64,000 nucleotides of DNA from a virus (IMGVR_UViG_3300021256_001754:64001-128000); one strand, 5' to 3'; shown: positions 9,889 through 62,993, counted from the stretch's first letter. The notes: generated by a model not told the origin, from the letters alone. Made by a program: numbers and translations.

Positions 9889-10056
9889 ATGCTATTACCA
9901 TTTTTCAAAAATAGACATGAAGAATCTGTAAAGAAGGTATTTGGATTACCAGCATTTTTATTCATGCTAAAGAATGGATTCGAAAGACCCGATGAAAGAA
10001 AAGACGATAAAGAAGTTGTAAAACCTATCTACTTTTTCGAAGAGGACAAGAAATGA
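9889..10056 (+). CDS. small hypothetical protein (55 aa) ending VVKPIYFFEEDKK
   Basis: hand-translated; AAAGGAGG RBS; below ORF-track cutoff. Confidence 0.65.
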   Translation: MLLPFFKNRHEESVKKVFGLPAFLFMLKNGFERPDERKDDKEVVKPIYFFEEDKK

Positions 10057-10061
10057 TTAAA

Positions 10062-10159
10062 TCTCTACCATTATACTGGTAGTTGCCATATGTAAAATTA
10101 TACATATGCGGCAACTTAACTATAAATAGTTATTGAAAGGAAAAGTATAATGGTAGAGA
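10062..10159 (+). promoter_or_regulatory. structured 5' leader that sequesters the start codon at 10150
   Basis: perfect 16-bp IR 10062-10077/10144-10159 enclosing two internal hairpins. Confidence 0.5.
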
Positions 10160-10329
10160 ATGATTTTCTTGAAATACTAAGAAGAAATAACGAAGATGAA
10201 ATCAGGATGTTCATACTTCGATTTGGGAAGAAACCTAAACCTTTCTCACCCATTTATTTTTTCGATCCACAAAATGCTTCTATGAAAGGAGATAATGTAA
10301 ATGAAAGATGGCGAGTTAACAATGAATGA
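10150..10329 (+). CDS. small hypothetical protein (59 aa) containing FSPIYFFD
   Basis: hand-translated MVENDFLEILRR...; GAAAGGA RBS. Confidence 0.55.
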   Translation: MVENDFLEILRRNNEDEIRMFILRFGKKPKPFSPIYFFDPQNASMKGDNVNERWRVNNE

Positions 10330-10822
10330 GCTTATGGGTGAAATCCGTGAGACAACAAAGAAACAGAAGAGTGCTTCTAGAGTAGATGAGATCAGGGTAA
10401 TGAAGACAATGCTTAATGATCCCGACTTTAGTGTATCTATCTATGATAAGAATAAAGGTCTTATCGGTCAGCGTTGTCCACATGAGGAAGCAGTGAAGTT
10501 CTTAGCAAATACTACATCTGCTATTACAGGATTAGATGCAAAGAATGCAGCTGAGTTAGCATCAAAGTATGAGTTCACTAAGAAAGATGCAATCTTTATG
10601 GTTGAGAACAGTAGAGACTTTGTTCAGACATATCTTTCTACTGGACGTAAATTACCTATAGCTCAGACCGAAGACACAGAAGCCTCACTGTTCTACAGAG
10701 CAGTGCCATCTAAGGAGAAGGTTGTTCCTGGTGCTCAGAAGACAACAACCATTCCTTCATTCAATAAGGTCATCTGCAAAAGCAAGAGTCCTAAATATCA
10801 TAGTTTTGACAGTGAGAAGTAA
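10301..10822 (+). CDS. hypothetical phage protein
   Basis: 173-aa ORF with AAAGGAG RBS. Confidence 0.75.
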   Translation: MKDGELTMNELMGEIRETTKKQKSASRVDEIRVMKTMLNDPDFSVSIYDKNKGLIGQRCPHEEAVKFLANTTSAITGLDAKNAAELASKYEFTKKDAIFMVENSRDFVQTYLSTGRKLPIAQTEDTEASLFYRAVPSKEKVVPGAQKTTTIPSFNKVICKSKSPKYHSFDSEK

Positions 10823-10885
10823 AGATTCATGTGTGAGGTATATAAAACCTCACACATTTTATTAATATTTAAGGAGGCAATTATT

Positions 10886-11512
10886 ATGCAGTATATTAAT
10901 CGTGAAGATCCGCAGGTAGTAATGAAACGAGTTGAGTATATAAATTATATCGACGAGCATATTCAGAATGTAAATAGAGCATTTTCAAAATTATTTGGAA
11001 ATGTACCAGAAGGATTTACTATACCTGGATATGATGCTGTACAGACAGCAGAGATAATAGAGATATTATCTACAATTGTTCCGCACCATGATTCTTCTAA
11101 ATTTGGAGATATAGAATTCGATCCATATAGAAGACATTTCCATCCTACAGATATGGAAAAGAGTGCTGGAGAATCAAAAGAAGATACAGAGGCTTTTGAT
11201 AATGCTTGGCACCATCACTATACTAGTAATTCACATCATCCTCAGTTTTGGTGTTATACTGATATAAAACTTGTAGGAGCATATGGTGTTCCTAAGAAAT
11301 GGAAATTATCTCCAACCAAACATGATCCTATAGATATGGATATAATTTCTATATGTCATATGATATGTGATTGGGAAGGTATGAGTATGAAATTCGGTGG
11401 TACTACAGTAGATTGGTGGAATAATAAAGCTGATAAAGAAAAGAGTTTTATGAGTAAGAATACTTTAGATACAACAAATAAACTGATTGATCTGCTTTTT
11501 AAGGGAGAGTGA
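10886..11512 (+). CDS. HD-superfamily (DUF5662-like) protein
   Basis: EHIQNV...HHDSSKF...AWHHHYTSNSHHPQFW...MICDW; start placed at ATG after AAGGAGG. Confidence 0.7.
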   Translation: MQYINREDPQVVMKRVEYINYIDEHIQNVNRAFSKLFGNVPEGFTIPGYDAVQTAEIIEILSTIVPHHDSSKFGDIEFDPYRRHFHPTDMEKSAGESKEDTEAFDNAWHHHYTSNSHHPQFWCYTDIKLVGAYGVPKKWKLSPTKHDPIDMDIISICHMICDWEGMSMKFGGTTVDWWNNKADKEKSFMSKNTLDTTNKLIDLLFKGE

Positions 11513-11518
11513 TAATAA

Positions 11519-13129
11519 ATGGCAAGGCAGGCGTTTAAAGCACGAATACATCAATTTGATCTTATCAGAAAAGATGGGTCTGCCGTACAGATAGATCCAA
11601 TGCTTATAAAGTATATCTTGGTAGAATACAACTATCTTACAAGACATATGCCTGTAATATATCTGTCATTATCTGTAACAGAAGAAATGTATACGATGTT
11701 TATTACAGAACAGCAGACAAATGCAGGTGATGGAGAAAACGTTGATAATAAAGCTGGTCAAGTTGCATTGATTATAGAGAGATTTAATGCTAATAGATCC
11801 GAATCGTCATTATATCAAAATATGATATTCGGATATTTTCATTATATCCCTTCTACCAGTAATCCAAACTATACTCAAGTATTGAATGAAGATTCCAATT
11901 CACAGGATGTACCATTTAGAACTCTTACTTTAGCATTATTAAGCATGAATCTAATGAATAATAGTAAGACTTCTTTTAATGGTATATTAGGAGAAATAGA
12001 TCAAGAGACATTGATTGCTAAGGCTTTAGAGAATATGGTGGATGCTAAGGGTAAACCTATGGAATGTGTCATAATGAAGCCTAAGTATAATGCTAAATTC
12101 GATACATTCATAGTACCACCTCTTACATCTAGAAATGAACTCATTGATTATTTTTTCAAAAAGAACCCATTTTATGATACCAATTATGAGTTCTTTATGG
12201 ACTTCCAGAGGTGTTATTTGAGAGATTGGACAGGAGAAGCTGTAGATGCAGGGGATGGTGAACCAACACGCATTATAATATCTATACAACAAGTTACTGA
12301 TCCTAGAGCATACTATGAAGGAGTCGAGAAATTATCAGATTCTTATCTCATGTATTTAAACCCTGCTAATACTAATCTATCTCTAAATAAAACTTCAGAT
12401 AATGTAGCAAACCAAATGGTATTTGTAGATGATACTGGTACTGTAGAAAAAGTAGATCTAAATGTAAATAATGCTATAGGATCTTCTGTAAAACAAACCT
12501 TTAGACGTGGTGGTAGTGCTGCTTTATATAAGAATAACGCAGAGAATGATGCTGTAATTCTTGAGATTATGAAAGAGAATGTAAATGCAGAATTGTTTAA
12601 TCCTAATATGTCTATCAAATTAGAGAACTATGATGGTTATAGTGAATATAACGGAGATTATTGTATAATGTATAAGAAACAAGTTATAAGCAATAATAAC
12701 GGAGAATTCGGTATAGCTGTAATACTAGGATTAAGGAAGATAACACATATAGTTCCTATAGGTTCAGAACAGACAGCAAAAGCAGTACAGAGCAATCAAG
12801 GTGCTGCTGCTAGATATATGGGAGCTATAAGAGAACCATCTACAGAATCACATACATCCGCTTCGTCAAATTATTATGGTCCTTTAGGATCTAGTAAGAA
12901 TAAACAATCTGCTTCTGTAAATTCTAATAGAGAGAAATCTAGAGCTGCTGGTGTTATCAAATTAAATGCTGGTGATAAAGCAAAAGAATTTAAGAAGTCT
13001 AAAGATGTATTACCATTAACAGCACCTGAACGTATTCTACCTAAAGTAATACGTACCAAAGCTAAAAATGATACCAATGGATTTCAGATAGATCTAGAAG
13101 AATGTGACGTTACAAAGAAGAAGGACTAA
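11519..13129 (+). CDS. probable virion structural (tail/baseplate hub-like) protein
   Basis: 536-aa ORF in the structural cluster; no catalytic motifs recognised. Confidence 0.5.
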   Translation: MARQAFKARIHQFDLIRKDGSAVQIDPMLIKYILVEYNYLTRHMPVIYLSLSVTEEMYTMFITEQQTNAGDGENVDNKAGQVALIIERFNANRSESSLYQNMIFGYFHYIPSTSNPNYTQVLNEDSNSQDVPFRTLTLALLSMNLMNNSKTSFNGILGEIDQETLIAKALENMVDAKGKPMECVIMKPKYNAKFDTFIVPPLTSRNELIDYFFKKNPFYDTNYEFFMDFQRCYLRDWTGEAVDAGDGEPTRIIISIQQVTDPRAYYEGVEKLSDSYLMYLNPANTNLSLNKTSDNVANQMVFVDDTGTVEKVDLNVNNAIGSSVKQTFRRGGSAALYKNNAENDAVILEIMKENVNAELFNPNMSIKLENYDGYSEYNGDYCIMYKKQVISNNNGEFGIAVILGLRKITHIVPIGSEQTAKAVQSNQGAAARYMGAIREPSTESHTSASSNYYGPLGSSKNKQSASVNSNREKSRAAGVIKLNAGDKAKEFKKSKDVLPLTAPERILPKVIRTKAKNDTNGFQIDLEECDVTKKKD

Positions 13130-16823: not shown

Positions 16824-16834
16824 GGAGGTATAAG

Positions 16835-24692: not shown

Positions 24693-24974
24693 GATGACTT
24701 AATCAAAAGACAGACAGTAAAAACGGGTGTAACCGGAACAATAATACCTGCTAATGGGGCACAATTATATCACTTACCACCGACAATACCGAGTGGATAT
24801 ATCTATCTTTGCGTTAATATCCGACAAGTTGGAACCGCAAATGGCTGGTTGTATCACGAGTTTTGCCAAGATGAAAATTACTCTTTGGTAATATTTAATC
24901 GTTATTCGAGTGATATAAATCAACCGTATGCAATTGATTATTTCTTTATAAAGGCAAATGTATTGCCGTATTAA
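24693..24974 (+). other. silent fibre-tip cassette C4 (93 aa; absent from ORF track)
   Basis: TGATGAC at 24692; hand translation DDLIKRQTVKTGVTGTIIPANGAQLYHLPPTIPSGYIYL...IDYFFIKANVLPY*; in-frame TAA at 24648. Confidence 0.8.
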
Positions 24975-25015
24975 ATTAGAATAAACTAAAATTAAAGCTA
25001 CCACAACATTTTATT

Positions 25016-25144
25016 ATATGGTGGAGGAAAAGTGTAGACTCTAGTTTATATACTTTAACTTTCGAGTATACGAAGTACAAGGTTGTTTAAACGAGGTAGA
25101 AGCCGACCATGCAAGGTGACAGAAATTCAAATCCTTGCCCATAT
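25016..25144 (+). ncRNA. tRNA-like structured RNA, copy 1
   Basis: ATATGG/CCATAT closing stem, D-arm-like GAG-GAAAAGTGTAGA-CTC, T-arm-like GCAAGG...TTCAAAT-CCTTGC. Confidence 0.7.
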
Positions 25145-25170
25145 TAAATTTTTGAGGAGAGCATCAAGAA

Positions 25171-25272
25171 ATGAATAAATATCATTATGTAATTATTGCT
25201 TTGATATTTTTATTCGGTGTCGAAATCGGTTTTGCAATAGGTGCGTATGTTGCACAAAACTTTTTAAAATGA
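25171..25272 (+). CDS. 33-aa single-TM peptide
   Basis: MNKYHYVIIALIFLFGVEIGFAIGAYVAQNFLK after GAGGAGAGCATCAAGAA. Confidence 0.5.
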   Translation: MNKYHYVIIALIFLFGVEIGFAIGAYVAQNFLK

Positions 25273-25470
25273 AATATTAAAATCTTTGCAAGGAGATTAT
25301 CGAGAATGAAATATTTTAAATTACACCGATTCTTACATCCTTTAAGGTGGCAGGAAATGCAATTCTTTTTTGATTTTCCATATCATGATTTTGATTTCGG
25401 AAAATTTAGAAGATAACTATTTTAAAACGAAATATTAAAATCTTTATATAGAGCATCAAGAAATAAATGA

Positions 25471-25594
25471 ATGTGGTGGTGGAATAGAGTAGACACAAAT
25501 ATTAAATTGTATGGTTGAGTCTGTTGACCCCAGACAGTTATATTGGTACAAATTGACCGTGTAAGGTGACAGAGATTCAAATCCTTACCCACAT
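25471..25594 (+). ncRNA. tRNA-like structured RNA, copy 2
   Basis: ATGTGG/CCACAT, GTG/CAC D-stem, GTAAGG/CCTTAC T-stem; near-identical to copy 5. Confidence 0.7.
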
Positions 25595-25616
25595 TAATTT
25601 TTAGAAAGAGGTTGCT

Positions 25617-25793: not shown

Positions 25794-25797
25794 ATGG

Positions 25798-25958: not shown

Positions 25959-25984
25959 TAACTAGACTTTTGAAATGATCCTTA

Positions 25985-26013
25985 ATACCAGTAGGATATT
26001 ATTCCTACTGGTA
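25985..26013. terminator. CCAGTAGG-family hairpin
   Basis: ATACCAGTAGGA...TCCTACTGGTAT. Confidence 0.75.
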
Positions 26014-35994: not shown

Positions 35995-37641
35995 TTAACT
36001 CGCAAACCATTCAAATGGATCTATAGGATGAGATATATCAGGTTTACGATTTAATTCAGCATCTTCTTTAGAATAATCGAAAAATCTTTCATCTCTAAAA
36101 TAAATAGGAGTTATTATTCTAGGAGCAAGAGTTTCTATATTCTTATTCTGACGTTTCTCTATTATTTTTTCATTACGTCTAGCAAGTTCATATGCTTCAA
36201 GAGTTGTATCAGAAGTAGAAGAAGCATATGTATTGAATACAGGTAATTTATAATAATAGTATTTTCTTATAGCATTAAATCCCATATCTACAAGTTCGAT
36301 ATATAACGTATTAGGATCTCGTGTTCTTCCTAAAGTTTGTCTTGCCAATACTTCAGATTTAAATGGTTCTGCTAATACTACAGTAACTTTAAGTCCACCA
36401 ATATCTTCACCAGCACCAGCAGATTTGGTTGTACTAAGTATTATTCCTTTATTACGTTCTACATTTACTTTATCTTCTTTAGATACCAAAGAAGTAAATA
36501 TTCCAATATTACCAATATATTCAGGGAAATTTGTACATATCCATTTGTAGACTCTCAATATTCCATCATTAGTACCAATGTATATAAGAGTCTTTCCCTT
36601 AAACCCTTTTATCATATCCATTATAATTCTCAATGCCATATAGAAATTTTCATTTTGAGTTATATAATCTACATATTTATTTCTATCCAACCCATAAGCA
36701 TTTCTAAATGCTGATATGTATTCTGGTCTTGGTCTACTATTAAACTTTATAGCAAGATAATCAGTATGAGGATCATTATCTTTATCAAATAGATCTATAA
36801 ATGGTACATTCTTAAAAGCAGTCTTATATATAATCTTCTCCCTGAAATCGGATCTCAAAGGAGTAGCAGTTACATAATACGTTTTAAATACATTGGTAAA
36901 GAAATCTATTTTACACATATTCTCGAAATTCTGATGTGCTTCATCGAAGAATTTCATACCTATGCCTAATTGACGAAATGCTTGGTTTAATAATGCCCAT
37001 CCATTTTCGTCTGCAAAAGAACGTATAGCACCATGAGTACATAAAAAAATACTACCTGATTGTGCTAATCTACTCTTACCGGTTAATGCTAATTTCAGCA
37101 TTGCTGCTGATACAAACACAATATCTCTATCTGTTAAATTTGTATACTCTTTTATATCTTTTGCCCACTGTGCTAATAGAGAATTAGAACCAGTTATTAC
37201 AATAGACTTGATTTGATAATATGCCATTGTAGCAATAGATACATAAGTTTTACCAGCTCCAGTATTTAGATTTATAGATAACTGTGGCAGATATTCGTTC
37301 TCTTCATATTCTTGACCAATTCCACAAGTAAACTTCAATGCTTCATATTGTCGTTCATCTCTAGGTGGATATTTCATAAGTATATTTGTTTTTGTTTTCT
37401 TATATGGATTTGGTCTATCCATAATATGCTCTTTACATCCTACTTGCTTTTTAGCATACCATATATCTATTCCTCTAGGTATATATAAGATTCTCTCTTC
37501 TTTATCGTAATACATACCTACAGGATCATAGTTATGTCTTATAGGATCCCATATAGAAAAGCATCTCTCTAATTTTTGAGATTGATTAATAGTATAATCC
37601 GTTATAAGTATACAGGAATTTCTTACTATAACTTGGCTCAT
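35995..37641 (-). CDS. superfamily 2 helicase (UvsW-like)
   Basis: TGAGKT, FDEAH, TATP, QTLGRTR. Confidence 0.85.
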   Translation of the reverse strand: MSQVIVRNSCILITDYTINQSQKLERCFSIWDPIRHNYDPVGMYYDKEERILYIPRGIDIWYAKKQVGCKEHIMDRPNPYKKTKTNILMKYPPRDERQYEALKFTCGIGQEYEENEYLPQLSINLNTGAGKTYVSIATMAYYQIKSIVITGSNSLLAQWAKDIKEYTNLTDRDIVFVSAAMLKLALTGKSRLAQSGSIFLCTHGAIRSFADENGWALLNQAFRQLGIGMKFFDEAHQNFENMCKIDFFTNVFKTYYVTATPLRSDFREKIIYKTAFKNVPFIDLFDKDNDPHTDYLAIKFNSRPRPEYISAFRNAYGLDRNKYVDYITQNENFYMALRIIMDMIKGFKGKTLIYIGTNDGILRVYKWICTNFPEYIGNIGIFTSLVSKEDKVNVERNKGIILSTTKSAGAGEDIGGLKVTVVLAEPFKSEVLARQTLGRTRDPNTLYIELVDMGFNAIRKYYYYKLPVFNTYASSTSDTTLEAYELARRNEKIIEKRQNKNIETLAPRIITPIYFRDERFFDYSKEDAELNRKPDISHPIDPFEWFAS

Positions 37642-37696: not shown

Positions 37697-39871
37697 TTAT
37701 CTTTTTGGTGTTAATTGTGCTTTTACTGTAGCTTTGATATCATCCATAGTTACAGTTTCTTTATTAGTACTATTTATACCGGTGTCGTTATCCATAAAGT
37801 ATATAGGCTTTATAATCTTTCTCTCAGGAATATCATTAGACCTATCAACCAGTTTTGGATTAATAAAGTCTTGTGGTCTTTCCATAGCAAATGGATCAAG
37901 ATTTGATGGTTTATATAATACATGATTAGCCGCACTGGTTAATGTCTTCTTCAACTTACTTCCCTGAAGTCTTACACTAATTCTAGGAGAATTTGTTATA
38001 GCGTCTTCAAGAGTTATAAGCTGATATCCAGCATTAGACTGTTCCCAATCAGGCTCTAATAATATATCATCCGGATGTCTAATCTGATTAGAGATAAGAA
38101 CCTCAAAATGTACAGAATTGATCTTTATACCACCCTGCAGATTATATGCAATGAAATCCTGAAGTAATGTATTTCTGTCATGCATCTTGATAGAAGACTT
38201 ATTATCTATAAGATTCTTAATCTGCTTCATGGTTTTAGATAACTCATTGTTTTGAATATCTATATAGAATAGATTCAATCCAATCATTCTTGTAAGAGGA
38301 AGTACATAAACACCATCATCGTTTACATCTTCTTTTTCAAGTTCTGATATAAGGTCGTCATCTAAATAAATAGGATCGGACTCATTGGTATAAATAGATT
38401 CTATTCTACCATCAGGATATTGAATCTGGAAGTTGTATACATAATCATTGTTATCCTCATCTACATCTGTAGCACCCTCTACATCATCGTCTCCACTGTC
38501 AGATTCATCTATAATATTATCAGGATCAATAATAAGATTATATCTTCTATAATCTACATTATCTTTTAAGATGATTCTGTCATATTCTACATTAAACAAA
38601 TCGTAGAATGATTGAACCCATGTCATTTTGATAATAGACGCTTCAAGAAGATGTTTAGCAGACAATAATCGCTGAGTATATTTTGAAGATAATTGTTCCG
38701 AAGCAATCTGTCCAACGTTGATATCGTTATTAAGATAAGCCAATAAACCATAGCATCTATAACAGATACCAAATCCTTTAGCCGCAGATGCACATGTAAT
38801 AGGAGATCTAAATAATAATGTCTTACCGATAAGATGTTTATCAATCTCAGCGTTTAGAATATGCTCTACACCATCATATGATAACTTATAATATCGCATG
38901 TCAAACATGCTGAGCATGCTATTATCTTTGATATATACTTCTTCAAAGTTCTTTGTATCACATGAATACTGTGGATCAGGATTAAGGAAAGTATCCATAT
39001 TATTTAATCCTAATCTACGAGCAAATGCACCAGATTGTCCTACATTCTGTTTTGATATAATCTGTGCTATACGTCCTATAGAACTATCGATAACGATATC
39101 TTCTATACTCTTTAAACCACCATTGATAAAACTATGGTTTATAGGATGTGTAAATAGACCACCTTGACCATTAGGTTTAGGACCTATACATACATTAACT
39201 TCAGCAAACTGTTTAGGGTTTGTACCCTCTCCAGTCTGAAATGCATATTTCTGATTATGAGTAGATTCTGGTGCTGTAATATATTTCTGCTGAATCTTCT
39301 CATTTTTCATAATAAGCTCTTTAGCATCCTGCATTGGTACACCTGTTAAATCCAAATGCATTGTCTCATTAAATTCAGGATACTTTCTCATAAGCTCTAC
39401 AGTATCGTCAAAATCGACACTATTAGCAAAAAACATTTGATAGTTCTGTAGAGGTATAAACTTACTTATGCATCTATCTATGGACTGATTGATAGTTATT
39501 CTATCCATAGTCCTTAGATTTTTTCTTATGAAAAACTTATTTATATAATTAACCATCCAGTCTGTTTTTATGACCGGTTCAAATACAATATGCTTTGTAT
39601 CAATCTCTTTTCCAGATCTAGTAATCAAAGTCCAAAACATTAGATTGTATAAATACTGCTCTATATACAAACTACAATCTCCATGTCTGAAATGAATATT
39701 TATCTTAAATCTCTGCACTTCAGGATCTTCTATTCCATCATCTAAGATAGAAAGGATATTCTTGAAGTGATCATCGATGTTATCGTCGTTAATATCTTTG
39801 GTGTAAATATCTTGTACACCATTCTGTGCTAATTCTTTGTAATATCCGTAATTTTCAAAGTGTGGTAACAT
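37697..39871 (-). CDS. multisubunit RNA polymerase beta-prime C-terminal subunit (probably non-virion RNAP)
   Basis: GRIAQIISKQNVGQSGAFARRL, CDT...RSPITC...GICYRCYG, NVGQIASEQLSSKYTQRLLSAKH, VHFEVLISNQ. Confidence 0.9.
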   Translation of the reverse strand: MLPHFENYGYYKELAQNGVQDIYTKDINDDNIDDHFKNILSILDDGIEDPEVQRFKINIHFRHGDCSLYIEQYLYNLMFWTLITRSGKEIDTKHIVFEPVIKTDWMVNYINKFFIRKNLRTMDRITINQSIDRCISKFIPLQNYQMFFANSVDFDDTVELMRKYPEFNETMHLDLTGVPMQDAKELIMKNEKIQQKYITAPESTHNQKYAFQTGEGTNPKQFAEVNVCIGPKPNGQGGLFTHPINHSFINGGLKSIEDIVIDSSIGRIAQIISKQNVGQSGAFARRLGLNNMDTFLNPDPQYSCDTKNFEEVYIKDNSMLSMFDMRYYKLSYDGVEHILNAEIDKHLIGKTLLFRSPITCASAAKGFGICYRCYGLLAYLNNDINVGQIASEQLSSKYTQRLLSAKHLLEASIIKMTWVQSFYDLFNVEYDRIILKDNVDYRRYNLIIDPDNIIDESDSGDDDVEGATDVDEDNNDYVYNFQIQYPDGRIESIYTNESDPIYLDDDLISELEKEDVNDDGVYVLPLTRMIGLNLFYIDIQNNELSKTMKQIKNLIDNKSSIKMHDRNTLLQDFIAYNLQGGIKINSVHFEVLISNQIRHPDDILLEPDWEQSNAGYQLITLEDAITNSPRISVRLQGSKLKKTLTSAANHVLYKPSNLDPFAMERPQDFINPKLVDRSNDIPERKIIKPIYFMDNDTGINSTNKETVTMDDIKATVKAQLTPKR

Positions 39872-40461: not shown

Positions 40462-42342
40462 CTATCCCGATTTTTGTCCAAGTGCTGCTCTTATAGATTC
40501 CAAATCATTTAGATCCAATTTATTCTGTGGTTCATTCATAAAGAATATTGGAACTATTACATTTGGTTTTGTTATCTGAGGATTTGGATCATTCATACTA
40601 TCAAGCTCATCTACAGAATCATCCATAACTACAGGTTCGTTAAGTGTATATACACTATTTGAATCTGAGAAAGTATTATCTTTCTTAGAAGTACCGGTAG
40701 ATATAATATCATTAATAGTAGACAATACATTAGAAGAAGTTGTTCTAACTGATGGCTGTCTACCATTTATCATCTTATTCATATGGAGATAAGTCTTATA
40801 CATTGGAGGAGTATCTAAATCTTCCAATAGTCTAATACCGCTTCCATATACAAATGGTTGAGCTATATAAGTAAGATCGGTTTTAACTCTTTTCTTGGTT
40901 AAGTTAAATACCATATATTTATTTCCCTCATCGTCGTAATCTAGATTTATAATAATTCCTAAATCCAAATTATCCAGCATAAGGAATGATTCACCTGTAT
41001 TAGACATACCAAGTTGCATTGTTATATCTGTAGGTGTTGCTCTTGCTTTATCTTGCTCTACAGCTCTAGCGGCTTCTCTATTAAGATGAGATACTGTGAT
41101 AAACGGAATATCTTTTTCAACTGCAAATGACTTAAATTCATTTACGACATTACCAAGTTCAATTCTAAGATCGGGAGTATATTCAGAAGATCTTATTCTC
41201 TTTACATGGTCCTGTATTACACATATAACTTCATATCCATCATCTTCCATATCTTCACACATATCGTATAGAAAAGTTGTATCAACTGTTCTATTGGCTT
41301 TATACCTAATTACCATATCGATAGGTGAATCATTTGTAAGTTTCAATTCTCCATCTACACGGAGTTTTCTAATAACTTCTTCCTTAGTAAAATTTTCCAT
41401 ACCAGAAGATGAGGTTATAAGATCAAATAGTCTATCTATAGTTTCTACTACAGAGTTCTCCATGGTAAGCATTACTACACATGGTTGTTTAGTTGGATCT
41501 TTTGGTTTATAATGCTTATTGTATTTTCTAATCTGATACATCAGGTTTAACAAAGTAACAGATTTTCCTATGTTTGTTATACCTAAAAGCATATATACAC
41601 GACCGGATTCAAATCCACCATTAATCATTTCATTGAATCCTTGCATACCAGTTACAAGTTTTCTAGATGGATTTGTAAGTAGATCGTAAGTTTCACCCAC
41701 TACATCTTCAAATATACCATCTCTCAAACTAAATACCATGTCTACGTTATTTGTAGATACTCTTGATTTTCTAAATTTAGAATGTGTATCGTTTACCAAT
41801 ACTTCAAAGTCATCTATCAAATGACCTTTACCTTCATATTCAGTTTTTGTTATAGCCGTACATACAGTCAAAAAATCTGGTGCCGCCATATAAGCAAATG
41901 CGAATTTGATATTATGCTCTATCATCTCATTTGCCCATTTTATCTCATTTGTAGTTAATAAGAATCTATCGATATTATTTGGATCTATAAAATCAGGTTT
42001 AAAATCCAAAGTTCCAAGTATATGATCTATCATTATATCCTGATCTGTAATCTTATAATCCATTCTAACTTCTAGAGCTTTTTTAATAAATTCTACATAA
42101 TGAGTTTTATTAAGATCATTAATATATACTTGAGGATTCAATAAATTTAAAAACTTCTTTAGATTATTTAAGTGATTCAAACGAATCAAATTGGATACAG
42201 TTACAGAATATCGTGCTAATATTCTAAAAGATCTTAAAGGTAGATTTAGAGATACAGTCTTTTTTACCTTAGGGGTCTTTATCTTTTTTGTATCATTAAT
42301 ATCAAATTTATCAATTACCATAATAAGATTACCCTCTTCCAA
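40462..42342 (-). CDS. DnaB-like replicative helicase
   Basis: GGFESGRVYMLLGITNIGKS, LTMEN, IQDHVKRI, TVSHLNR. Confidence 0.85.
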   Translation of the reverse strand: MEEGNLIMVIDKFDINDTKKIKTPKVKKTVSLNLPLRSFRILARYSVTVSNLIRLNHLNNLKKFLNLLNPQVYINDLNKTHYVEFIKKALEVRMDYKITDQDIMIDHILGTLDFKPDFIDPNNIDRFLLTTNEIKWANEMIEHNIKFAFAYMAAPDFLTVCTAITKTEYEGKGHLIDDFEVLVNDTHSKFRKSRVSTNNVDMVFSLRDGIFEDVVGETYDLLTNPSRKLVTGMQGFNEMINGGFESGRVYMLLGITNIGKSVTLLNLMYQIRKYNKHYKPKDPTKQPCVVMLTMENSVVETIDRLFDLITSSSGMENFTKEEVIRKLRVDGELKLTNDSPIDMVIRYKANRTVDTTFLYDMCEDMEDDGYEVICVIQDHVKRIRSSEYTPDLRIELGNVVNEFKSFAVEKDIPFITVSHLNREAARAVEQDKARATPTDITMQLGMSNTGESFLMLDNLDLGIIINLDYDDEGNKYMVFNLTKKRVKTDLTYIAQPFVYGSGIRLLEDLDTPPMYKTYLHMNKMINGRQPSVRTTSSNVLSTINDIISTGTSKKDNTFSDSNSVYTLNEPVVMDDSVDELDSMNDPNPQITKPNVIVPIFFMNEPQNKLDLNDLESIRAALGQKSG

Positions 42343-43538: not shown

Positions 43539-43599
43539 TATTCTTACCCCTATTTATTTTTAATCAATTATGATTATCATTTTTATAGTATATATTCGA

Positions 43600-44173: not shown

Positions 44174-44938
44174 TCATATTATCCTCTTATATGAATAAAA
44201 CCAGTCTATCATGGCTTTGAATGTATGATGTAAATTTTCTGTATCGTTACGACATTGAGGATTATTAAACTCGATTGTTTTGAAATCGAATTTACCTTTC
44301 ACATCTTTATCGACTCTTAAAATGGCTAATCCATTAATATCTGGAATAGAGTTATCTCCCATACAATATTTATTATACATTAATCCCCAATAGTATGCAT
44401 AAGTCTGGAGATAGTAATTAGCTGATATTATTTTAGAGGTTTTAAAATCCAATACATAAACAGTTTCTACTCCATTCTGTTCTAATCCAATAATACAATC
44501 TGCTGTTCCACCAAACCAAGGACAAGTAATCTCTTTCTCTATAGCGTATATATGAAGATTTATATTTTTATCTCTCATATAATTATACCAATTCATAAAC
44601 CCAGAGAAAGAATTCTCTATTTTTCTAGCAATCTTATAGCTATCTTGATATTCATCTGAGAATCTAATTCCTTTTCCATATAAAAGAAAATTTTCTATCT
44701 TCTCATGAACAGCTGTTCCTATAGTAAGAGCGGTATCTTTTATAGATTTATAATTCGATCCCATAGCAGCAGCCCATCCAATAAGATGCGAACTATCTGT
44801 AGTTACCTCCAATATTTCACTAACTCTAGGAATAGGTTTACCATTAAATGTATATGTCTTCCACATATTTGATTCTGTTAGCTCAATATCATTAAGCATA
44901 TTGAGCTCGAAATCATAAAAATAAATTGGATTAATCAT
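44174..44938 (-). CDS. PD-(D/E)XK exonuclease
   Basis: PRVSEIL, GTAVHEKIE, GGTADC, LDFKTS, QTYAY. Confidence 0.85.
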   Translation of the reverse strand: MINPIYFYDFELNMLNDIELTESNMWKTYTFNGKPIPRVSEILEVTTDSSHLIGWAAAMGSNYKSIKDTALTIGTAVHEKIENFLLYGKGIRFSDEYQDSYKIARKIENSFSGFMNWYNYMRDKNINLHIYAIEKEITCPWFGGTADCIIGLEQNGVETVYVLDFKTSKIISANYYLQTYAYYWGLMYNKYCMGDNSIPDINGLAILRVDKDVKGKFDFKTIEFNNPQCRNDTENLHHTFKAMIDWFYSYKRII

Positions 44939-54643: not shown

Positions 54644-55033
54644 GATGACGTAAATAATATATTTCAAGGTCCAACTATAATGGATGCAAATGCTGCTCCG
54701 GTTGGTATAAGTTTCTTACCAATCGAAGCAGCAAATAACCCTTTAAATTCTTGGGCAACACTTATCACTACTTGTCCACAAGCTAATTATAAACAGCAAA
54801 TATGTACACCATGGTTTAATAATTTTAGAGAAATATGTTTTAGAGTTTATGATTATGATGGTTGGAAATCGTGGTCATTAATTCCATCAACAAGTCTTGG
54901 CGACCCTTTGAATGTAACTAATACAAATTTGTCTTGGACCGCTGCAAGTGGACGACAAAATGATTGTACCCCTGTACATTATGATGGTAGAGCATTTATT
55001 TATGTAGATGGTAATAAATTATACCTTACATAA
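54644..55033 (+). other. silent cassette C13 (129 aa, knob-like)
   Basis: TGATGAC at 54643, 5 nt after C12 stop; DANAAP...QQIC...FRVY...WKSW. Confidence 0.85.
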
Positions 55034-55216
55034 TATCATATTGATAATCTAAAAAGAAATTATCCCTAGGATTAATACCCTAGGGACAATTTATAATTTT
55101 CATAAATAAATTGGGAGATTTATTTTATGACATTATTTTATAGTTGTAAATTAAATCTTTTACAAATATATACTATAATTGTAGAAACATAAAAACCTAT
55201 ATGGAGGAAATTAAAA

Positions 55217-55804
55217 ATGAGCAATTTAATGATGTGCCCACATTGTGGGAAAGTTTATTTAAAAGAAACACTATCGGCTGATATTCAGGGTAGATATTTT
55301 TGTCCAGATTACGAGGATAGAAATAATGAGCTATTCGAAGTAGATGAGCAGATGGTTGTTGTTTTAAGACGTTTATGGGATTTAGGTTATTGGACAGAAT
55401 TCTGCTGTAGTGGTCATTATTCAGATACCAATCTTCCTTATATTCTGTTTGCTGATAGAGATCTTGCACCATGTACTCATCCTAAGAACTGGTTTATTCA
55501 GGATATAGAGTATTTGGATGATAATGACAAACTTGTTCAGAGTAAAACCGGAATATATGGAATTGTATCTAGTAAGAAAATAACAACACCAGAAGAAAGA
55601 CAGATCCGTAACAATAAGCTTATGAATGAACTGGTTAAGTGGGTTATGGATCTTGAACCTAATCCTATACCAGAAGCTCATGATGCAACAAAATGCTTTA
55701 GAGATGGTGATTCCACATATTATGGAGAAGATGGTTATAATATCTTTCCAGATAAATGGATAACAAAGAGTACACATTGTAGATATAAGAGAAGACCAGA
55801 ATAA
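55217..55804 (+). CDS. zinc-binding hypothetical protein
   Basis: CPHCG, GYWTEFCCSGH; GGAGG RBS. Confidence 0.65.
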   Translation: MSNLMMCPHCGKVYLKETLSADIQGRYFCPDYEDRNNELFEVDEQMVVVLRRLWDLGYWTEFCCSGHYSDTNLPYILFADRDLAPCTHPKNWFIQDIEYLDDNDKLVQSKTGIYGIVSSKKITTPEERQIRNNKLMNELVKWVMDLEPNPIPEAHDATKCFRDGDSTYYGEDGYNIFPDKWITKSTHCRYKRRPE

Positions 55805-59058: not shown

Positions 59059-59520
59059 TTATCCTACTGGGTTATAAAATTTATTACCGTTTAAAATCGC
59101 TAAAGCATATTGTACATGAACCCATCCTAAGCCATTTCTATAAAAATCTGTTTTTACAAAATGTCTTTCTATCTCATCGTCATAGTCTCTAAATCTTTCA
59201 TCGTCTATTACACACCACGCGTCTATGTTTTGGTGTTCGTTCAAATATTTATGGATAGCTGTACCACGTTTACCACCTAGATGATCAACCTGATCAAATA
59301 TAAACAGTTTATGTTCTGCTAATCTACGTTCAAGATATAATAAGTTCTCTTCTATATTCATCCAACTAGAAGTCAAAACTAAGTATGCATTAGATTGTTC
59401 TACAATAGACTGTAATACTTCTATCTTTTCGTCATCTAGTCCAATTATAAATTTACTTAGTCTATCTTGTGTATCTTGACAGTTTAAAACCCCATCTATA
59501 TCAAGAAAAATAACTTTCAT
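59059..59520 (-). CDS. HAD-domain protein (Swiss-army-knife RNA-repair type)
   Basis: FLDIDGVLN, LTSSW, VIDDE. Confidence 0.8.
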   Translation of the reverse strand: MKVIFLDIDGVLNCQDTQDRLSKFIIGLDDEKIEVLQSIVEQSNAYLVLTSSWMNIEENLLYLERRLAEHKLFIFDQVDHLGGKRGTAIHKYLNEHQNIDAWCVIDDERFRDYDDEIERHFVKTDFYRNGLGWVHVQYALAILNGNKFYNPVG

Positions 59521-59546
59521 ATTACCACCCCCTTATTATATTCATA

Positions 59547-60944
59547 TTAATCTTTATGCTGATTCTTGATTCTAGAATCGTTAATATTATTCATTGTAAT
59601 AATTGTCTCATTTACATATTTCATATCTGCATAGAATACCAAGTTGAGCATTAACTCTTCATCTACAGGGTTCTCAAGACATATTATCTTCTTACCATAA
59701 TCAACTCGTATATCAACGCATCTAGCTTGATCAAATTGTTGTGACAGATACACTTTAGTATCGATAAACATTCTTGGATCTAATCCCATCTTTATAGTAT
59801 AATCTATAACCTGAGTTATATTACCACCACCATTCAGTATAGAAGATATATCGATAGTCTTTTCATTTCTATCTGTCATATAACTTGTAAGAGCAAACTG
59901 AGCCCATCCCTTTTCATTAACAGGTGGAATCTGGAATGGATTGACAGTATATAGAGAAACAGAAGTTTCTGGATCTTTATCATACACAGTAAGTTCATTA
60001 CCAATATACTCTTCTTCAAATAGCACAAAGAAATGAGGTATTGGTATTGTCAATACCGCTTCCATTTCTATATCATAGTTATCGTATAATTTTCCAACCT
60101 GATCCCCATCATTAGGTTGTAATTTATTCAGACAAGATATATGAGTATAGAGATCATCTATTCTCATAAAATAAGCCGGTTGTTGGTTTATTCCTCTCAT
60201 CTTACATATGATAGGAAGATGACTATGTCTATTAAGATAATTTGTCAAATCGCATATATCTTTCTTCTGTATCAGCATCTTTCCAGTCTCTGGATTCTTT
60301 ACTAATTCAAATCCAGCTTTACATGCTAATCCAATAATACATGATTCTGGTATATGAAAATCTATACTGCATCTATCATGCCATGTAGAACCAATCTTAA
60401 AACATAACTCCATTCTATTTAAAGCATCTAATTGTTCAGATCTAGTATTAAATCTAGCTCTAAAAGCAAATGTCATCTTTAAAGCTCTCATACGACAATA
60501 GAGATATTGTTTTGATTCAAAGTCTTTTAAAAATGATTGCTCATAGTCTGAAGTTTTTAAAAAGAGATGCTCGTTACCTTGATATAAATCAATATTCTCT
60601 CTATTGAAATCATACTCTATAGTGGGCACTATAGATAACATTGGTTTTTCTCTTTTGATATTATAATTATTAAACTTTTTCCAGTCTGATAATACATGTT
60701 TACCGTTGATATATACTGTTTTAAAATACTCTTTAGGAAATTTAGCAAGAAACCAATCTCTCATATATTCTATAGCTAAACTATATCCATGTACATATGA
60801 CGGTAAAGATAATTGTTTATATAATTTAGGACGATATAAGAAAAAGTCTATAGGGAGATTTGTAATATGTGTCTGTGCACCATTCTTACGTTTTTCATTT
60901 ACTATCTCTCTAATACTAACTGGTTTAAATCTATTCTCGTTCAT
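59547..60944 (-). CDS. probable virion structural protein
   Basis: 465 aa; AAGGAGG RBS; TACA-N6-TA upstream on - strand. Confidence 0.5.
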   Translation of the reverse strand: MNENRFKPVSIREIVNEKRKNGAQTHITNLPIDFFLYRPKLYKQLSLPSYVHGYSLAIEYMRDWFLAKFPKEYFKTVYINGKHVLSDWKKFNNYNIKREKPMLSIVPTIEYDFNRENIDLYQGNEHLFLKTSDYEQSFLKDFESKQYLYCRMRALKMTFAFRARFNTRSEQLDALNRMELCFKIGSTWHDRCSIDFHIPESCIIGLACKAGFELVKNPETGKMLIQKKDICDLTNYLNRHSHLPIICKMRGINQQPAYFMRIDDLYTHISCLNKLQPNDGDQVGKLYDNYDIEMEAVLTIPIPHFFVLFEEEYIGNELTVYDKDPETSVSLYTVNPFQIPPVNEKGWAQFALTSYMTDRNEKTIDISSILNGGGNITQVIDYTIKMGLDPRMFIDTKVYLSQQFDQARCVDIRVDYGKKIICLENPVDEELMLNLVFYADMKYVNETIITMNNINDSRIKNQHKD

Positions 60945-61033
60945 AAAGGTTTCCCTCCTTTGTTATATAGATGTAATTCTTAGGATAAATTATGAGGTTG
61001 GGAATTATATCCCAACCTCGTTATATTATACAT

Positions 61034-62074
61034 TTATGACAATGGTTTTATTTCTACAGTCTGAACGTAGTTTTCATTCCAAACTCCATTAGAATCAAGC
61101 CAGCAATATCCTCTACCCTTACTATCCTTGATATAGCAATTCTTAGCCATTGCACCATCACTCTTAAGATAATACCACTGACCCTTATACTTAATCCACT
61201 GATTAGCAAGCATCTTTCCATCAGCACCGAGATAATACCACTCTCCCTTATACTGAAGCCATCTGTTAGTATAAGCAGCACCATCAGAACCAACATAGTA
61301 CCAATCATTTCCGGTCTGAACCCAAGTATTTGCAGCCATTGCACCACTCTTTCCAAGATAATACATCTTACCTTCGTCGGTAATCCATCCAGTCTGCATA
61401 ACACCATTATTATCAAAATAGTACCATACTTCTTTGATTTTATACCAACCATGTGCATTCTGACCAGGAGCTATTCTATAATACCATACTGATCCAGTAT
61501 CTATCCATGTAGGATAATCTGCAGTATCAACATTTGTTGTATTAGGCTGAGCTTTCTTACCTGTAGTAAGATTTGTTGCTGCATGATGGTTCTCATACAA
61601 TAAAATATCTCCAGGGAGAAGATAATCGTCACTTGTGAGATATTTAGAAGCTGTCAATACCTGGAATCCAGCTTTCTTAAATGCTTCTTTCATATTACCG
61701 GAATAGATATCTTTTGAGAGTGATTTAAGTTTAGCTATATTATATTTATATCCGGTAGCCTTTACACATGCAGTAACACCAGCAGTACAATCAGCATCAC
61801 ACTTATTAACGATCTTGCTAGGATCATAATTAGCATACTGAAGCTGAGTCCAGAATGAAGTACGCTTATACTGATTGTACCCAACGTTATCATTCATTGC
61901 TGCTTTATAAGCATTCTCTGCTATAGTATAAGCAACTGTTGGATCTGGATATCTTAATACTACAGTCCAAGGACGATTATACCATCCTATAACAGCCCAC
62001 TCTGTTTTAGTCTGGTCTCCGGCAACTCCACCATGATACTTTCCATTTTCGTCATGTCCACTATTGGAAATCAT
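61034..62074 (-). CDS. endolysin: NlpC/P60-CHAP-like catalytic domain plus cell-wall (choline-type) binding repeats
   Basis: DCTAGV...GDILL...HH; repeated WYYxxxxGxMxxxW. Confidence 0.8.
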   Translation of the reverse strand: MISNSGHDENGKYHGGVAGDQTKTEWAVIGWYNRPWTVVLRYPDPTVAYTIAENAYKAAMNDNVGYNQYKRTSFWTQLQYANYDPSKIVNKCDADCTAGVTACVKATGYKYNIAKLKSLSKDIYSGNMKEAFKKAGFQVLTASKYLTSDDYLLPGDILLYENHHAATNLTTGKKAQPNTTNVDTADYPTWIDTGSVWYYRIAPGQNAHGWYKIKEVWYYFDNNGVMQTGWITDEGKMYYLGKSGAMAANTWVQTGNDWYYVGSDGAAYTNRWLQYKGEWYYLGADGKMLANQWIKYKGQWYYLKSDGAMAKNCYIKDSKGRGYCWLDSNGVWNENYVQTVEIKPLS

Positions 62075-62129
62075 AAGTCTATCCTCCTTTATAGATGATC
62101 ACTAAATTATTATCTTCATGTGAAAGGAT

Positions 62130-62423
62130 ATGATAAATTACCAAGAATATATAGCATTTTTCTCACCTTTTGATGAAAAACATTATGGAGAAAAATATAT
62201 GAGTGTATATACTGATACAAATGGTAATATAAATTTAACTCAAGAAACAGGTGTTTATCCTACCAATTTTATATCTATTACGGCAGACAACACAGCAAAT
62301 TCATTATTTATATACCCTTATACTTACTATGAAAATTTATATTGTAGAGTAAAGCATGGATTTATAGTTGAAGATTATATCAATCAACGAGCCGATTTTC
62401 ATATAATCTATATAATAGATTAG
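62130..62423 (+). CDS. ORF with 14-aa leader fused at variant site TGATGAA to tip-like cassette C15 (62172..62423)
   Basis: site in frame at 62171; TDTNGNINL... tip-like segment. Confidence 0.55.
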   Translation: MINYQEYIAFFSPFDEKHYGEKYMSVYTDTNGNINLTQETGVYPTNFISITADNTANSLFIYPYTYYENLYCRVKHGFIVEDYINQRADFHIIYIID

Positions 62424-62513
62424 TGTGCCTGATTTGAGTTATGAATAAGAAAGAGAACTAATACATAGCCAAGATATAAATTATTTTTTTTTAATACGAT
62501 ACATACATATTAT

Positions 62514-62651
62514 TAGAAAGATTGCTGTGGTTACGTTTTGGTTCCTTTCTGTTGTTCATTTCCAGATTAATTTTCAGCAATCTTTCTAAAGCCGTTAAAA
62601 ACTGTGTCATTCGGAAATCCCAGTAGGAATTTCTTCCTACTGGGATTTTTC
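62514..62651 (+). ncRNA. candidate small RNA (15-bp stem, anti-SD-like loop, terminator)
   Basis: TTAGAAAGATTGCTG/CAGCAATCTTTCTAA perfect IR; loop contains TTCCTTTCT; TACA-N6-TA just upstream; CCAGTAGG hairpin downstream. Confidence 0.5.
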
Positions 62652-62654
62652 GTT

Positions 62655-62993
62655 TTACATAAAATATATTGGTTCAATAATCTTCTTTATAGTAACGTGA
62701 GGTGTAGATAAAGCATCGTCATCTTTATTGGCTATCATATCTTCATATCGACTATAGAATCTCTTTCTTTTCCTTTCGATCTGTTCTTCATCCGGAACTA
62801 GATTAAATTCTCTAGCACACTGTATAAGATCAGAATATTCTTCTTTTATATTAGCATCTATCTCTTCCTCTATTTTAGGAGTAGGATTTTCTCCTCTTAA
62901 TTTTCTAACCTTTTTCATACACGCTTGTATTAATTCACTAGCCTCTTCTGCAAGTTGTTCGTACATAGCGGCCTCACCAATACACTCTATCAT
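62655..62993 (-). CDS. MazG-like NTP pyrophosphohydrolase
   Basis: QLAEEASELIQA...EEYSDL. Confidence 0.7.
   Translation of the reverse strand: MIECIGEAAMYEQLAEEASELIQACMKKVRKLRGENPTPKIEEEIDANIKEEYSDLIQCAREFNLVPDEEQIERKRKRFYSRYEDMIANKDDDALSTPHVTIKKIIEPIYFM

Follow-up and report, generated by a model that had tools for sequence, protein, structure and literature searches.

The window analysed here is a 64,000-nucleotide stretch from the genome (249,585 bp, ~250 kb) of an uncultured jumbo phage. Seven ORFs in it carry a short peptide of the form ...I-I-x-P-I-Y-F..., hereafter the tag (Table 1). The first-pass annotation had listed these peptides as a motif shared by seven unrelated proteins. 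All seven exist, each peptide is in frame at the named ORF, and the window coordinates were verified, but the number was too low: genome-wide, ~20 proteins of DNA copying, repair and transcription have the tag on their flexible ends.

Table 1. ORFs of the window that carry the tag (all positions are window coordinates)
Feature	Coordinates	Strand	Tag and its place	Motif	Profile matches
55-aa ORF	9889..10056	+	VVKPIYFFEE, near C-terminus	10024-10035	no Pfam family
59-aa ORF	10150..10329	+	PFSPIYFFD	10249-10260	
SF2 (ResIII/DEAD) helicase	35995..37641	-	RIITPIYFRD, C-terminal tail	36097-36108	Pfam ResIII 1.3e-9; PHROG DNA helicase
Non-virion RNAP beta' C-terminal half	37697..39871	-	KIIKPIYFMD, C-terminal tail	37796-37807	PHROG RNAP subunit
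DnaB-like replicative helicase	40462..42342	-	NVIVPIFFMN, C-terminal tail	40540-40551	Pfam divDNAB 3.9e-21
Exonuclease	44174..44938	-	MINPIYFYD, N-terminal	44918-44929	PHROG exonuclease 1.7e-14
Small MazG-like nucleoside triphosphate pyrophosphohydrolase	62655..62993	-	KIIEPIYFM, protein end	62661-62672	PHROG, weak, 5.4e-5; Pfam MazG only E 0.3

The comparison set consisted of this phage (G000) and six related metagenomic phages, with AR9, Staphylococcus phage S6 and G003 as tail-less AR9-like genomes. A single-protein search of IMG/VR gave no close relatives, and an alignment query yielded 16 loci. The SF2 helicase is a homolog of AR9 gp155; its orthologs bear the tag version of their own genome in 6/6 genomes, often in 2-3 copies. 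The RNAP protein, whose best AR9 match is annotated as 'non-virion RNAP, beta' C-terminus', is tagged in 6/6 genomes as well. Among database homologs, P-hydrophobic-x-[FY] was found in the last 70 aa of 74/120 beta' sequences and the core in the last 70 aa of 111/120 DnaB sequences; internal control windows gave 0 in both cases. In an alignment of 24 DnaB sequences P598 is invariant and F601 at least 90% conserved, while the rest of the tail is variable. The exonuclease is tagged in 1/7 genomes, in this phage's copy alone, and is thus a lineage-specific carrier. The 59-aa ORF has a 65-aa ortholog in G001 that keeps the tag (PVSPIYFFFD); for the 55-aa ORF and the MazG-like protein no ortholog was found among the relatives examined. 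The first-pass annotation had suggested that the two tiny proteins (55 and 59 aa) might be competitive regulators.

The first-pass annotation had proposed a proteome-wide count of the motif against a shuffled background, and this count revealed strong enrichment. Among the 273 ORFs called across the genome with a simple in-house ORF caller, PIYF occurs 15 times against 0.48 expected from residue-shuffled proteomes, [IV].P[IL][YF]F 20 times against 0.22, and [IV][IV].P[IL][YF]F 14 times against 0.06. P[IL][YF]F was seen 24 times against 1.85. For each of these four patterns, 0/300 shuffles attained the observed count. Nineteen of the 24 P[IL][YF]F matches lie at most 60 residues from a protein end, a zone comprising 38% of the proteome. 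The core can be written as hydrophobic-hydrophobic-x-P-hydrophobic-x-F, a portable element of variable, non-domain regions within the 3-10 residues of a short linear motif (SLiM).

The codons for P (CCT/CCC/CCA), I (ATC/ATT/ATA) and Y (TAC/TAT) vary among the sites, so conservation is at the protein level, and a DNA-level signal was ruled out. Additional PI[YF]F matches in the window, at 3977, 17636 and 43549, are in non-genic frames and resemble AT-rich background. One of them (43549..43560, + strand) reads PIYF and then a stop. Its frame has 21 codons and runs antisense to the start of an SbcD-like gene (5′ end), and the match was judged to be due to chance; other non-genic frames of this AT-rich genome give similar matches. 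Outside the window, the virion RNAP beta' subunit has NPVFF close to its N-terminus; this is a conserved fold element and not a tag, because AR9 and S6 have it too.

Nearly all carriers belong to the DNA/RNA metabolism category. The replisome is represented by DnaB, both halves of the split family-B DNA polymerase, NAD ligase and RNase H (237 aa here, with a possible tag and no clamp domain), and the nucleases of recombination and repair by RusA and exonuclease, with SbcD in some lineages. Further carriers are the SF2 helicase, most non-virion (late) RNAP subunits and assorted small DNA-binding-type proteins. Awkward for a replisome hub are the MazG-like enzyme, a Bro-N protein and a NUMOD4 (homing-endonuclease-type) protein. 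In none of the genomes is the tag present on topoisomerase II, UvsX, Dda helicase, primase or SbcC, hence it is not a general 'go to DNA' requirement. The earlier statement that the motif is absent from virion proteins held: virion RNAP is untagged, and so are all proteins with a virion-type annotation, a class defined by annotation. It had also been placed outside catalytic cores, in agreement with its location in tails that are missing from the AR9, S6 and G003 orthologs. These tails are 40-170 aa extensions. The N-terminal half of the DNA polymerase (DNAP-N) has 727 aa, compared with 554/573/552 in AR9/S6/G003, and beta' has 724, compared with 631/637/634.

The six related phages have the tag on the same proteins, in versions of their own (PIYF, PIYY, PIEF, CVTF, LFxKI, AFSxI, GMxY), which suggests that one partner protein probably reads the peptide. 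Conservation in orthologous tails, a further check named at the outset, was likewise confirmed, with lineage-specific versions on the same orthologs: DnaB is tagged in 7/7 genomes, DNAP-N in 6/7, the C-terminal part of non-virion RNAP beta in 5/6 and RusA in 3/3. The observed and expected numbers were 24 and 1.6 for P[IL][YF]F in G000, 15 and 1.3 for PI[EST]F in G004, 14 and 1.7 for LF.KI in G002, 17 and 2.4 for [KRN]AF[ST] in G006, 31 and 3.4 for GM.Y in G007, and 4 and 0.1 for CV[TR]F in G008; the patterns were set after inspection of the tails, so the diagonal of the version cross-table is partly favoured by construction. Off the diagonal, and in AR9 and S6, counts were at background, apart from an overlap of the similar G000 and G001 patterns. 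In the seven genomes 79-100% of the own-version matches lie at most 60 aa from a terminus (~40% of residues). AR9 and S6 have only 3 and 6 matches to a loose pattern, scattered and non-terminal, and G003 has no tails.

The tag does not depend on a particular end of the protein. In RusA it is C-terminal in G000 and G001 and N-terminal in G004; in the 246430 family it is C-terminal in G000, G004 and G006 and N-terminal in G002. It also forms tandem arrays of 2-4 copies, 5-14 residues apart, implying a multivalent or oligomeric receptor. The shift between versions tracks phage divergence gradually, and radically different motifs (PIYF, GMxY, AFSxI, CVTF) occur among phages whose DnaB is 43-48% identical to that of this phage. 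G002 and G004, which have different versions, come from one metagenome (3300029305).

The concerted change of the motif across all carriers between lineages is the strongest support for a docking peptide. We lean towards the view that the motif is a portable docking ('address') peptide read by one co-evolving, phage-encoded receptor, which gathers replication and late transcription. According to this model the tag, located in flexible extensions at either end of intracellular DNA-handling proteins or in their internal linkers, would be bound by the receptor, and single or tandem tags would tether the carriers to a common hub or scaffold on replicating phage DNA. Tethering would couple replication, repair and late transcription at one site, and co-evolution of receptor and peptide would lead to a private version in each lineage. 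We infer that the receptor exists, that it is encoded by the phage and that it serves co-localisation. A docking peptide for one hub had been suggested by the first-pass annotation; enrichment, placement at protein ends, portability, arrays, ortholog conservation and concerted change speak for the docking peptide, while the hub was not found.

As suggested, the hub may be a clamp or SSB analogue or a compartment-targeting factor; the searches detected no canonical clamp, loader, SSB or chimallin. Profiles of beta-clamp, gp45, PCNA and clamp loader (PF00712, PF09116, PF00705, PF13177) had no match at E<=1 in the six-frame translated genome, whereas control genomes matched, and Pfam SSB had no match in the genome. 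A Foldseek search of the PDB listed one chimallin chain, only at E 2.8 (noise). Ten uncharacterised proteins are confined to the motif-bearing genomes. One of these clade-specific proteins, a Zn-ribbon protein encoded at genome positions 8744-9709, is present in all seven motif-bearing genomes and has a 100-130 aa uncharged region rich in Q/N/G/Y/P; it is our top candidate for a scaffold receptor. No functional names emerged when 15 clade-specific proteins were scanned with Pfam and PHROGs. Six candidate families, compared as profiles with PDB sequences, yielded nothing significant, and ESM Atlas searches with the 8744-9709 protein and a 374-aa protein adjoining DNAP-N were uninformative. The 374-aa protein, considered as a hub, is more likely a carrier because its G006 ortholog bears the tag. 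Two acidic hub candidates have predicted folds: a tandem HU/IHF-like pseudo-dimer for the 210-aa protein (high confidence), and a beta domain plus XRE-like helix-turn-helix for the 240-aa protein. Complex prediction of these two with the beta' tail, run without controls, returned 'no answer' (score 0.00), which speaks neither for nor against binding. As to its nature, the receptor might be a non-ring scaffold of a replication factory, which is possible though doubtful; a highly divergent clamp-like processivity hub is unlikely, and another phage-encoded protein less likely again. It is rather doubtful, too, that the tag acts as a 'password' for a phage scaffold that builds a selective, chimallin-free factory for replication and late transcription, possibly a condensate of the Q/N/G/Y-rich protein. 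The fast, concerted drift of the code would then mean that a factory is open only to the enzymes of its own lineage, with the nucleases of co-infecting relatives excluded.

Clamp-binding motifs include the PIP-box Qxx[ILM]xx[FY][FY], the bacterial QL[SD]LF and the gp45-binding C-terminal tails of T4 gp43, gp33 and gp55. The phage tag resembles them as a short hydrophobic/aromatic terminal peptide with many bearers, among them polymerase, ligase, RNase H-type nuclease and resolvase. As in the T4 gp45 system, the late-transcription machinery carries it too, and as in clamp networks the typical non-partners (topoisomerase, recombinase, primase) do not. In contrast to clamp motifs, the phage sites, all of which were inspected, have no conserved Q, have Pro before the hydrophobic residue and match neither QL[SD]LF nor the PIP-box; in contrast to clamp networks, DnaB, SSB-like and small DNA-binding proteins are among the carriers, with neither clamp nor loader detected. 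Clamp motifs stay conserved from one domain of life to another, whereas the phage motif diverges radically among related phages. The bacterial SSB C-terminal tip (DDDIPF) is similar in that one short terminal peptide organises many genome-maintenance proteins, but there the hub bears the peptide and the partners the pockets, whereas here ~20 partners bear the peptide. AR9 DnaB ends in ...GIPF, an unrelated resemblance to this tip. Bacterial microcompartment encapsulation peptides, encapsulin cargo-loading peptides and the pyrenoid Rubisco-binding motif likewise occur at either terminus, joined by linkers and sometimes repeated, on functionally linked proteins destined for one scaffold or shell. 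They differ in that the carriers here are viral DNA enzymes and the scaffold is a candidate only. To our knowledge, peptide versions private to a lineage have not been described for an entire viral proteome. The PhiKZ replisome shares with this phage a split family-B polymerase, a DnaB-like helicase, the lack of a canonical clamp and an RNase H tethered to the polymerase. In phiKZ the tether is Rhc, in which RNase H is joined to a domain derived from a clamp; it contacts the split DNA polymerase through a large folded interface (~1,800 square angstroms) rather than a linear motif (bioRxiv 10.64898/2026.09.30.755723).

Several other readings of the tag were weighed. It could be an import or retention signal, similar to an NLS, for a closed, non-chimallin 'phage nucleus' whose shell or pore receptor admits tagged proteins only. 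Tagging of the non-virion RNAP fits this, as does the untagged virion RNAP, which would enter with the DNA, and so does a carrier set broad enough to include the NUMOD4 and Bro-N proteins. Chimallivirus import (PicA/Imp) selects the same protein classes (non-virion RNAP, polymerase, helicase, nucleases). The one review of nucleus-forming phages that was searched predicts that import specificity diverges between related phages, in line with private versions in related phages of one sample; the same review ascribes import to surface residues of folded cargo (GFPmut1) and to the importer PicA and mentions no linear signal, unlike the linear tag found here (PMC12908238). Several DNA enzymes are untagged in our phage, and topoisomerase II, UvsX, Dda, primase and SbcC would have to ride on tagged partners. 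PhiKZ chimallin (gp54) had no match in five genomes (G000-G004) in a low-sensitivity single-sequence search without a positive control, and chimallin is reported to be missing from AR9-like phages (PMC13282480). On this evidence an import signal is unlikely. Loading of enzymes into the virion, comparable to the T4 capsid-targeting sequence and encapsulin cargo peptides, is very improbable: HK97-fold shells do load cargo by short terminal peptides on linkers, but the virion RNAP, the enzyme expected to be packaged, is untagged, and by annotation alone none of the tagged proteins is of virion type.

Docking onto a host hub (beta sliding clamp, SSB, chaperone or membrane factor), with versions reflecting different hosts, would agree with the failure to detect a phage-encoded clamp or SSB and with the tagged polymerase, ligase, RNase H and resolvase, which are classic clamp partners; by eye, the G002 version x-[IL]-[KR]-L-F also resembles bacterial QL[SD]LF. 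Host hubs and their motifs are, however, strongly conserved across bacteria, whereas the tag changes radically among phages whose DnaB shares 43-48% identity with that of this phage, and it does so gradually with phage divergence. The main version, moreover, lacks Q, and Pro stands at the Leu position of the clamp motif; two versions occur in one metagenome, though the hosts may differ. We regard a host hub as somewhat less likely than an import signal. That the tag is a handling signal, either a degron for timed proteolysis or a peptide recognised by the phage GroEL-like chaperonin or another chaperone, is improbable. Its hydrophobicity and terminal position, often at the very C-terminus with a free carboxylate, speak for this, and the phage encodes a GroEL homolog, yet AR9 and S6 encode GroEL and are tagless, and carriers restricted to DNA handling, arrays and private versions are unexpected for a general folding or degradation signal.

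One-peptide/one-hub networks organise cellular replication (PCNA, beta-clamp, SSB), and protein organelles take up their contents by targeting peptides. Our literature search for a linear motif or tail motif in jumbo phages found no report, nor did we find one of a virus whose entire machinery for replication and late transcription bears a single peptide, re-coded in concert by lineage. If the docking model is true, the tag would provide a handle on the organisation of the DNA factory in non-chimallin jumbo phages, on the tie between late transcription and replication, and on how related phages keep their machineries separate. The receptor would be predicted among the approximately ten conserved uncharacterised proteins. 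The lineages would offer natural 'orthogonal' tag/receptor pairs, one per lineage, for which the peptides alone would suffice even though the phages are uncultured.

The window covers bases 64,001-128,000 of one IMG/VR virus record (249,585 bp, 32% G+C, estimated complete by CheckV). Compared with Bacillus phages AR9/PBS1 and Staphylococcus phage S6, protein identity is 25-35% for the subunits of the split multisubunit RNA polymerase (RNAP), the DnaB-like helicase and the split family-B DNA polymerase, which places the phage, itself uncultured, among the distant relatives of AR9-like jumbo phages. AR9-like phages encode a virion and a non-virion RNAP (nvRNAP). The first-pass annotation had listed seven peptides with the core PI[YF]F, here called the tag, on the ends of replication and transcription proteins; all seven were in frame in the ORFs named. 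A simple ORF finder run over the whole genome gave 273 ORFs (76,598 residues), in which the motif was counted against a background of shuffled residues. PIYF was observed 15 times against 0.48 expected, P[IL][YF]F 24 times against 1.85, [IV].P[IL][YF]F 20 times against 0.22 and [IV][IV].P[IL][YF]F 14 times against 0.06; no shuffle matched the observed counts. PIYF was among the top four over-represented tetrapeptides of the proteome. The consensus comprises a basic residue, two I/V, any residue and P-[IL]-[YF]-F; next comes, in most cases, M/F plus an acidic residue, or the stop codon. Of the 24 P[IL][YF]F matches, 19 lay at most 60 residues from a protein end. The codons for P, I and Y varied from site to site, which argues for selection on the peptide, not on a DNA element. 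Matches in the window at 3977, 17636 and 43549 were discarded as AT-rich background in non-genic frames, and NPVFF near the N-terminus of virion RNAP beta′, shared by AR9 and S6, was classed as a fold element.

The original observation held and extended beyond the seven proteins. Carriers in the window were the SF2 helicase, the C-terminal half of nvRNAP beta′, the DnaB-like helicase, the exonuclease (tag at the N-terminus), a small MazG-like protein and two tiny ORFs. Outside the window the tag was found in the C-terminal half of nvRNAP beta (three copies in the tail), the N-terminal half of the same subunit (a looser copy), the NAD-dependent ligase (in the linker that follows an N-terminal extension) and both halves of the DNA polymerase: the exonuclease-bearing half in its C-terminal tail, the catalytic half in an internal loop. 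It was also found in a RusA-like resolvase, a Bro-N protein, a zinc-ribbon protein, an acidic 138-aa protein and several proteins of unknown function, and RNase H has a weaker site. The core of the 138-aa protein (…LRKTQW…FEIRKW…) had no match in a Pfam scan; by eye it resembles the PC4/YdbC fold, which binds single-stranded DNA, a likeness to be taken as a lead only. An acidic tail comes after the core. A further carrier has a NUMOD4 motif, which is typical of homing endonucleases; it would be a mobile-element-type protein bearing the phage's address peptide. In this genome (G000) and its relatives both topoisomerase II subunits, the Dda-like helicase, the UvsX-like recombinase, primase, SbcC, the three recognisable virion RNAP subunits, GroEL and terminase were untagged. 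The absence of the motif from virion proteins, noted in the first pass, extended to all proteins with virion-type annotation in these genomes.

Homology searches found more than 1,400 metagenome homologs of the DnaB-like helicase, many on contigs of 210-267 kb, and more than 1,300 of nvRNAP beta′. The core P-hydrophobic-x-[FY] was present in the last 70 residues of 111 of the 120 best DnaB homologs, and a longer form with two upstream hydrophobic residues in 87; internal control windows of the same 120 proteins contained none. For nvRNAP beta′ the core occurred in the last 70 residues of 74 of 120 homologs. The tag is conserved in orthologous tails, with a lineage-dependent residue (Y, F, R, K, E, I, H or S) before the final F.

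Six related IMG/VR genomes or fragments (G001, G002, G004, G006, G007 and G008; three of the relatives are incomplete contigs), whose DnaB is 39-48% identical to that of G000, were compared together with AR9, S6 and a third AR9-like genome, G003. G000 and each of the six relatives G001-G008 tag the same orthologs, each genome with its own version of the peptide: hydrophobic-hydrophobic-x-PIYF in G000, CPIYY/PAIYY in G001, CPI(E/S/T)F in G004, (E/Q)CV(T/R)F in G008, (P)(I/L)(K/R)LF(H/Q)KI(E/D) in G002, (K/R/N)AF(S/T)x(I/Y) in G006 and (R/P)GM(V/I/M)Y(D/E) in G007. With patterns set only after the tails had been inspected, each version was 7 to 40 times as frequent in its own genome as expected (the looser G001 pattern only about twofold). 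Foreign patterns stayed at background in the other genomes, AR9 and S6, except for the overlap of the similar G000 and G001 patterns, and 77-100% of own-version matches were terminal. Tags were present in DnaB (7/7), the SF2 helicase (6/6), nvRNAP beta′ (6/6), the exonuclease-bearing polymerase half (6/7), nvRNAP beta-C (5/6) and beta-N (3/6), the 6909 family (4/4), RusA (3/3) and the 246430 family (4/5). In RusA and the 246430 family the tag switches terminus between genomes. Often 2-4 copies stand in tandem, with a spacing of 5-14 residues. The G002 nvRNAP beta-C tail is a separate ORF; such a tail can thus exist as a free-standing multi-tag protein. The G006 ortholog of a G000 protein with a microbial-type poly(ADP-ribose) glycohydrolase domain ends in the G006 tag. 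G002 and G004, whose versions are very different, come from one metagenome.

The orthologs in AR9, S6 and G003 lack these tails, and their lengths fall 40-170 residues below those of the tagged proteins. The AR9 DnaB-like helicase ends in ...DSGIPF, which resembles the bacterial SSB tip DDDIPF; S6 DnaB ends in ...QIFDDF and S6 beta′ in ...DPLFDFDI. In these cultured phages another kind of terminal signal, acidic and aromatic, may be in use.

The same set of carriers, the mobile ends, the tandem copies and the concerted, proteome-wide re-coding point to many ligands co-evolving with one putative receptor, and the 'one hub' interpretation of the first-pass annotation is the best available. The version drifts gradually with phage divergence and differs radically among related phages, which argues for a phage-encoded receptor rather than a conserved host hub. 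The tandem arrays imply that the putative receptor is multivalent or oligomeric.

The working principle is similar to that of clamp/PIP-box networks and of organelle-targeting peptides. The division into carriers (polymerase, ligase, RNase H, resolvase, helicases, late RNAP) and non-carriers (topoisomerase, recombinase, primase) is like that of sliding-clamp partners, and the tagged late RNAP has an analogy in the clamp-coupled late transcription of T4. A canonical clamp network was nevertheless rejected: clamp and clamp loader had no Pfam match in the G000 genome, and the consensus is different. SSB had no Pfam match there either. Membership in an SSB-tip network failed on polarity, which is reversed relative to the tag system, and capsid loading failed because the virion RNAP is untagged. 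The division into carriers and non-carriers also argues against the tag as a signal that every protein would need for import into a closed compartment. Chimallivirus import selects the same class of proteins, with a specificity that differs between related phages, but the review searched describes it in terms of cargo surface residues and mentions no linear signal (PMC12908238). A single-sequence search with phiKZ chimallin found no match in G000-G004. Full-text literature searches turned up no account of jumbo phages with a shared linear motif. An unconventional hub in G000 would not be surprising, because phiKZ, which has a replisome of the same type (split polymerase, DnaB, no clamp), relies there on a clamp-derived partner that is not a ring and is itself unconventional (bioRxiv 10.64898/2026.09.30.755723).

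Ten proteins of unknown function occurred in the motif-bearing genomes but not in AR9, S6 or G003. Two of them, both acidic and with predicted folds of high confidence, are always encoded between the ligase and nvRNAP beta-N genes. The predicted fold of the first resembles engineered single-chain IHF (Z 6.2, rmsd 3.5 over 119 residues); the top rows of the fold search (Z 8-9.5) were small subunits of large assemblies. One strand of this protein, NWxYxWTF, is aromatic and conserved; the net charge of about -18 makes a plain DNA binder unlikely. The second had only a weak best structural match (Z 5.2 over 66 residues), and its family has 481 representatives in a 50%-clustered library. Another clade-specific protein has an SSB-like layout, with a folded core, an N/S/G-rich disordered stretch ending in SFFN and an acidic tip ...DDLE; it had no sequence match to known SSBs.

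Coordinates of tag carriers, receptor candidates and related features (G000 unless stated)
Feature	Local coordinates	Genome coordinates	Remarks
8744-9709 family	L001:8744-9709	8744-9709	candidate; outside window
NUMOD4-motif protein, 190 aa	L001:12497-13069	12497-13069	ends in VIEPIYFM; NUMOD4 Pfam E 0.001, below cut-off
Acidic protein, 205-210 aa	L002:6715-7347	24715-25347	candidate; tandem HU/IHF-like pseudo-dimer in one chain, pLDDT 93
Acidic protein, 240 aa	L002:7425-8147	25425-26147	candidate; variable beta-rich N-terminal domain, conserved XRE-like helix-turn-helix
PARG_cat_microb protein	L004:776-1576	54776-55576	Pfam 7e-24
Second family with uncharged region		59266-60657
Clade-specific protein		60660-62717	candidate
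Clade-specific protein		75519-77129	candidate
21-codon frame ...RPIILTPIYF-stop	window 43498-43563, +		full consensus; antisense to start of SbcD-like gene; most likely chance in AT-rich DNA
Clade-specific protein		123547-124944	candidate
Clade-specific protein		173997-174950	candidate
SSB-like architecture, 274 aa	L008:11805-12629	191805-192629	candidate
Clade-specific protein		192633-193388	candidate
Clade-specific protein		218405-219454	candidate
Acidic protein, 138 aa	L010:4624-5040	220624-221040	tag carrier; outside window
nvRNAP beta-C tail ORF of G002, 143 aa	locus L081	222434-222865 (G002)	three or four tag copies
AR9 DnaB-like helicase gp007	L012:2827-4512

Of the candidates, only the 8744-9709 family is shared by all seven motif-bearing genomes, and no protein of this type exists in AR9 or G003. 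It combines a zinc-ribbon core (C-x-H...C-x2-C) between Y/G/Q/N-rich ends with a C-terminal region of 100-130 uncharged, Q/N/G/Y/P/M-rich residues (prion-like, partly FG-like), and the family at 59266-60657 has a similar uncharged region. Regions of this composition are typical of condensate scaffolds, and on their account a scaffold-and-partner factory is the favoured variant of the putative hub: a scaffold, for which the 8744-9709 family is the top candidate, would gather the tagged partners into a replication factory. The short linear motif system is real, strongly non-random and evolutionarily maintained, and it is confined to one large clade of uncultured AR9-like jumbo phages.
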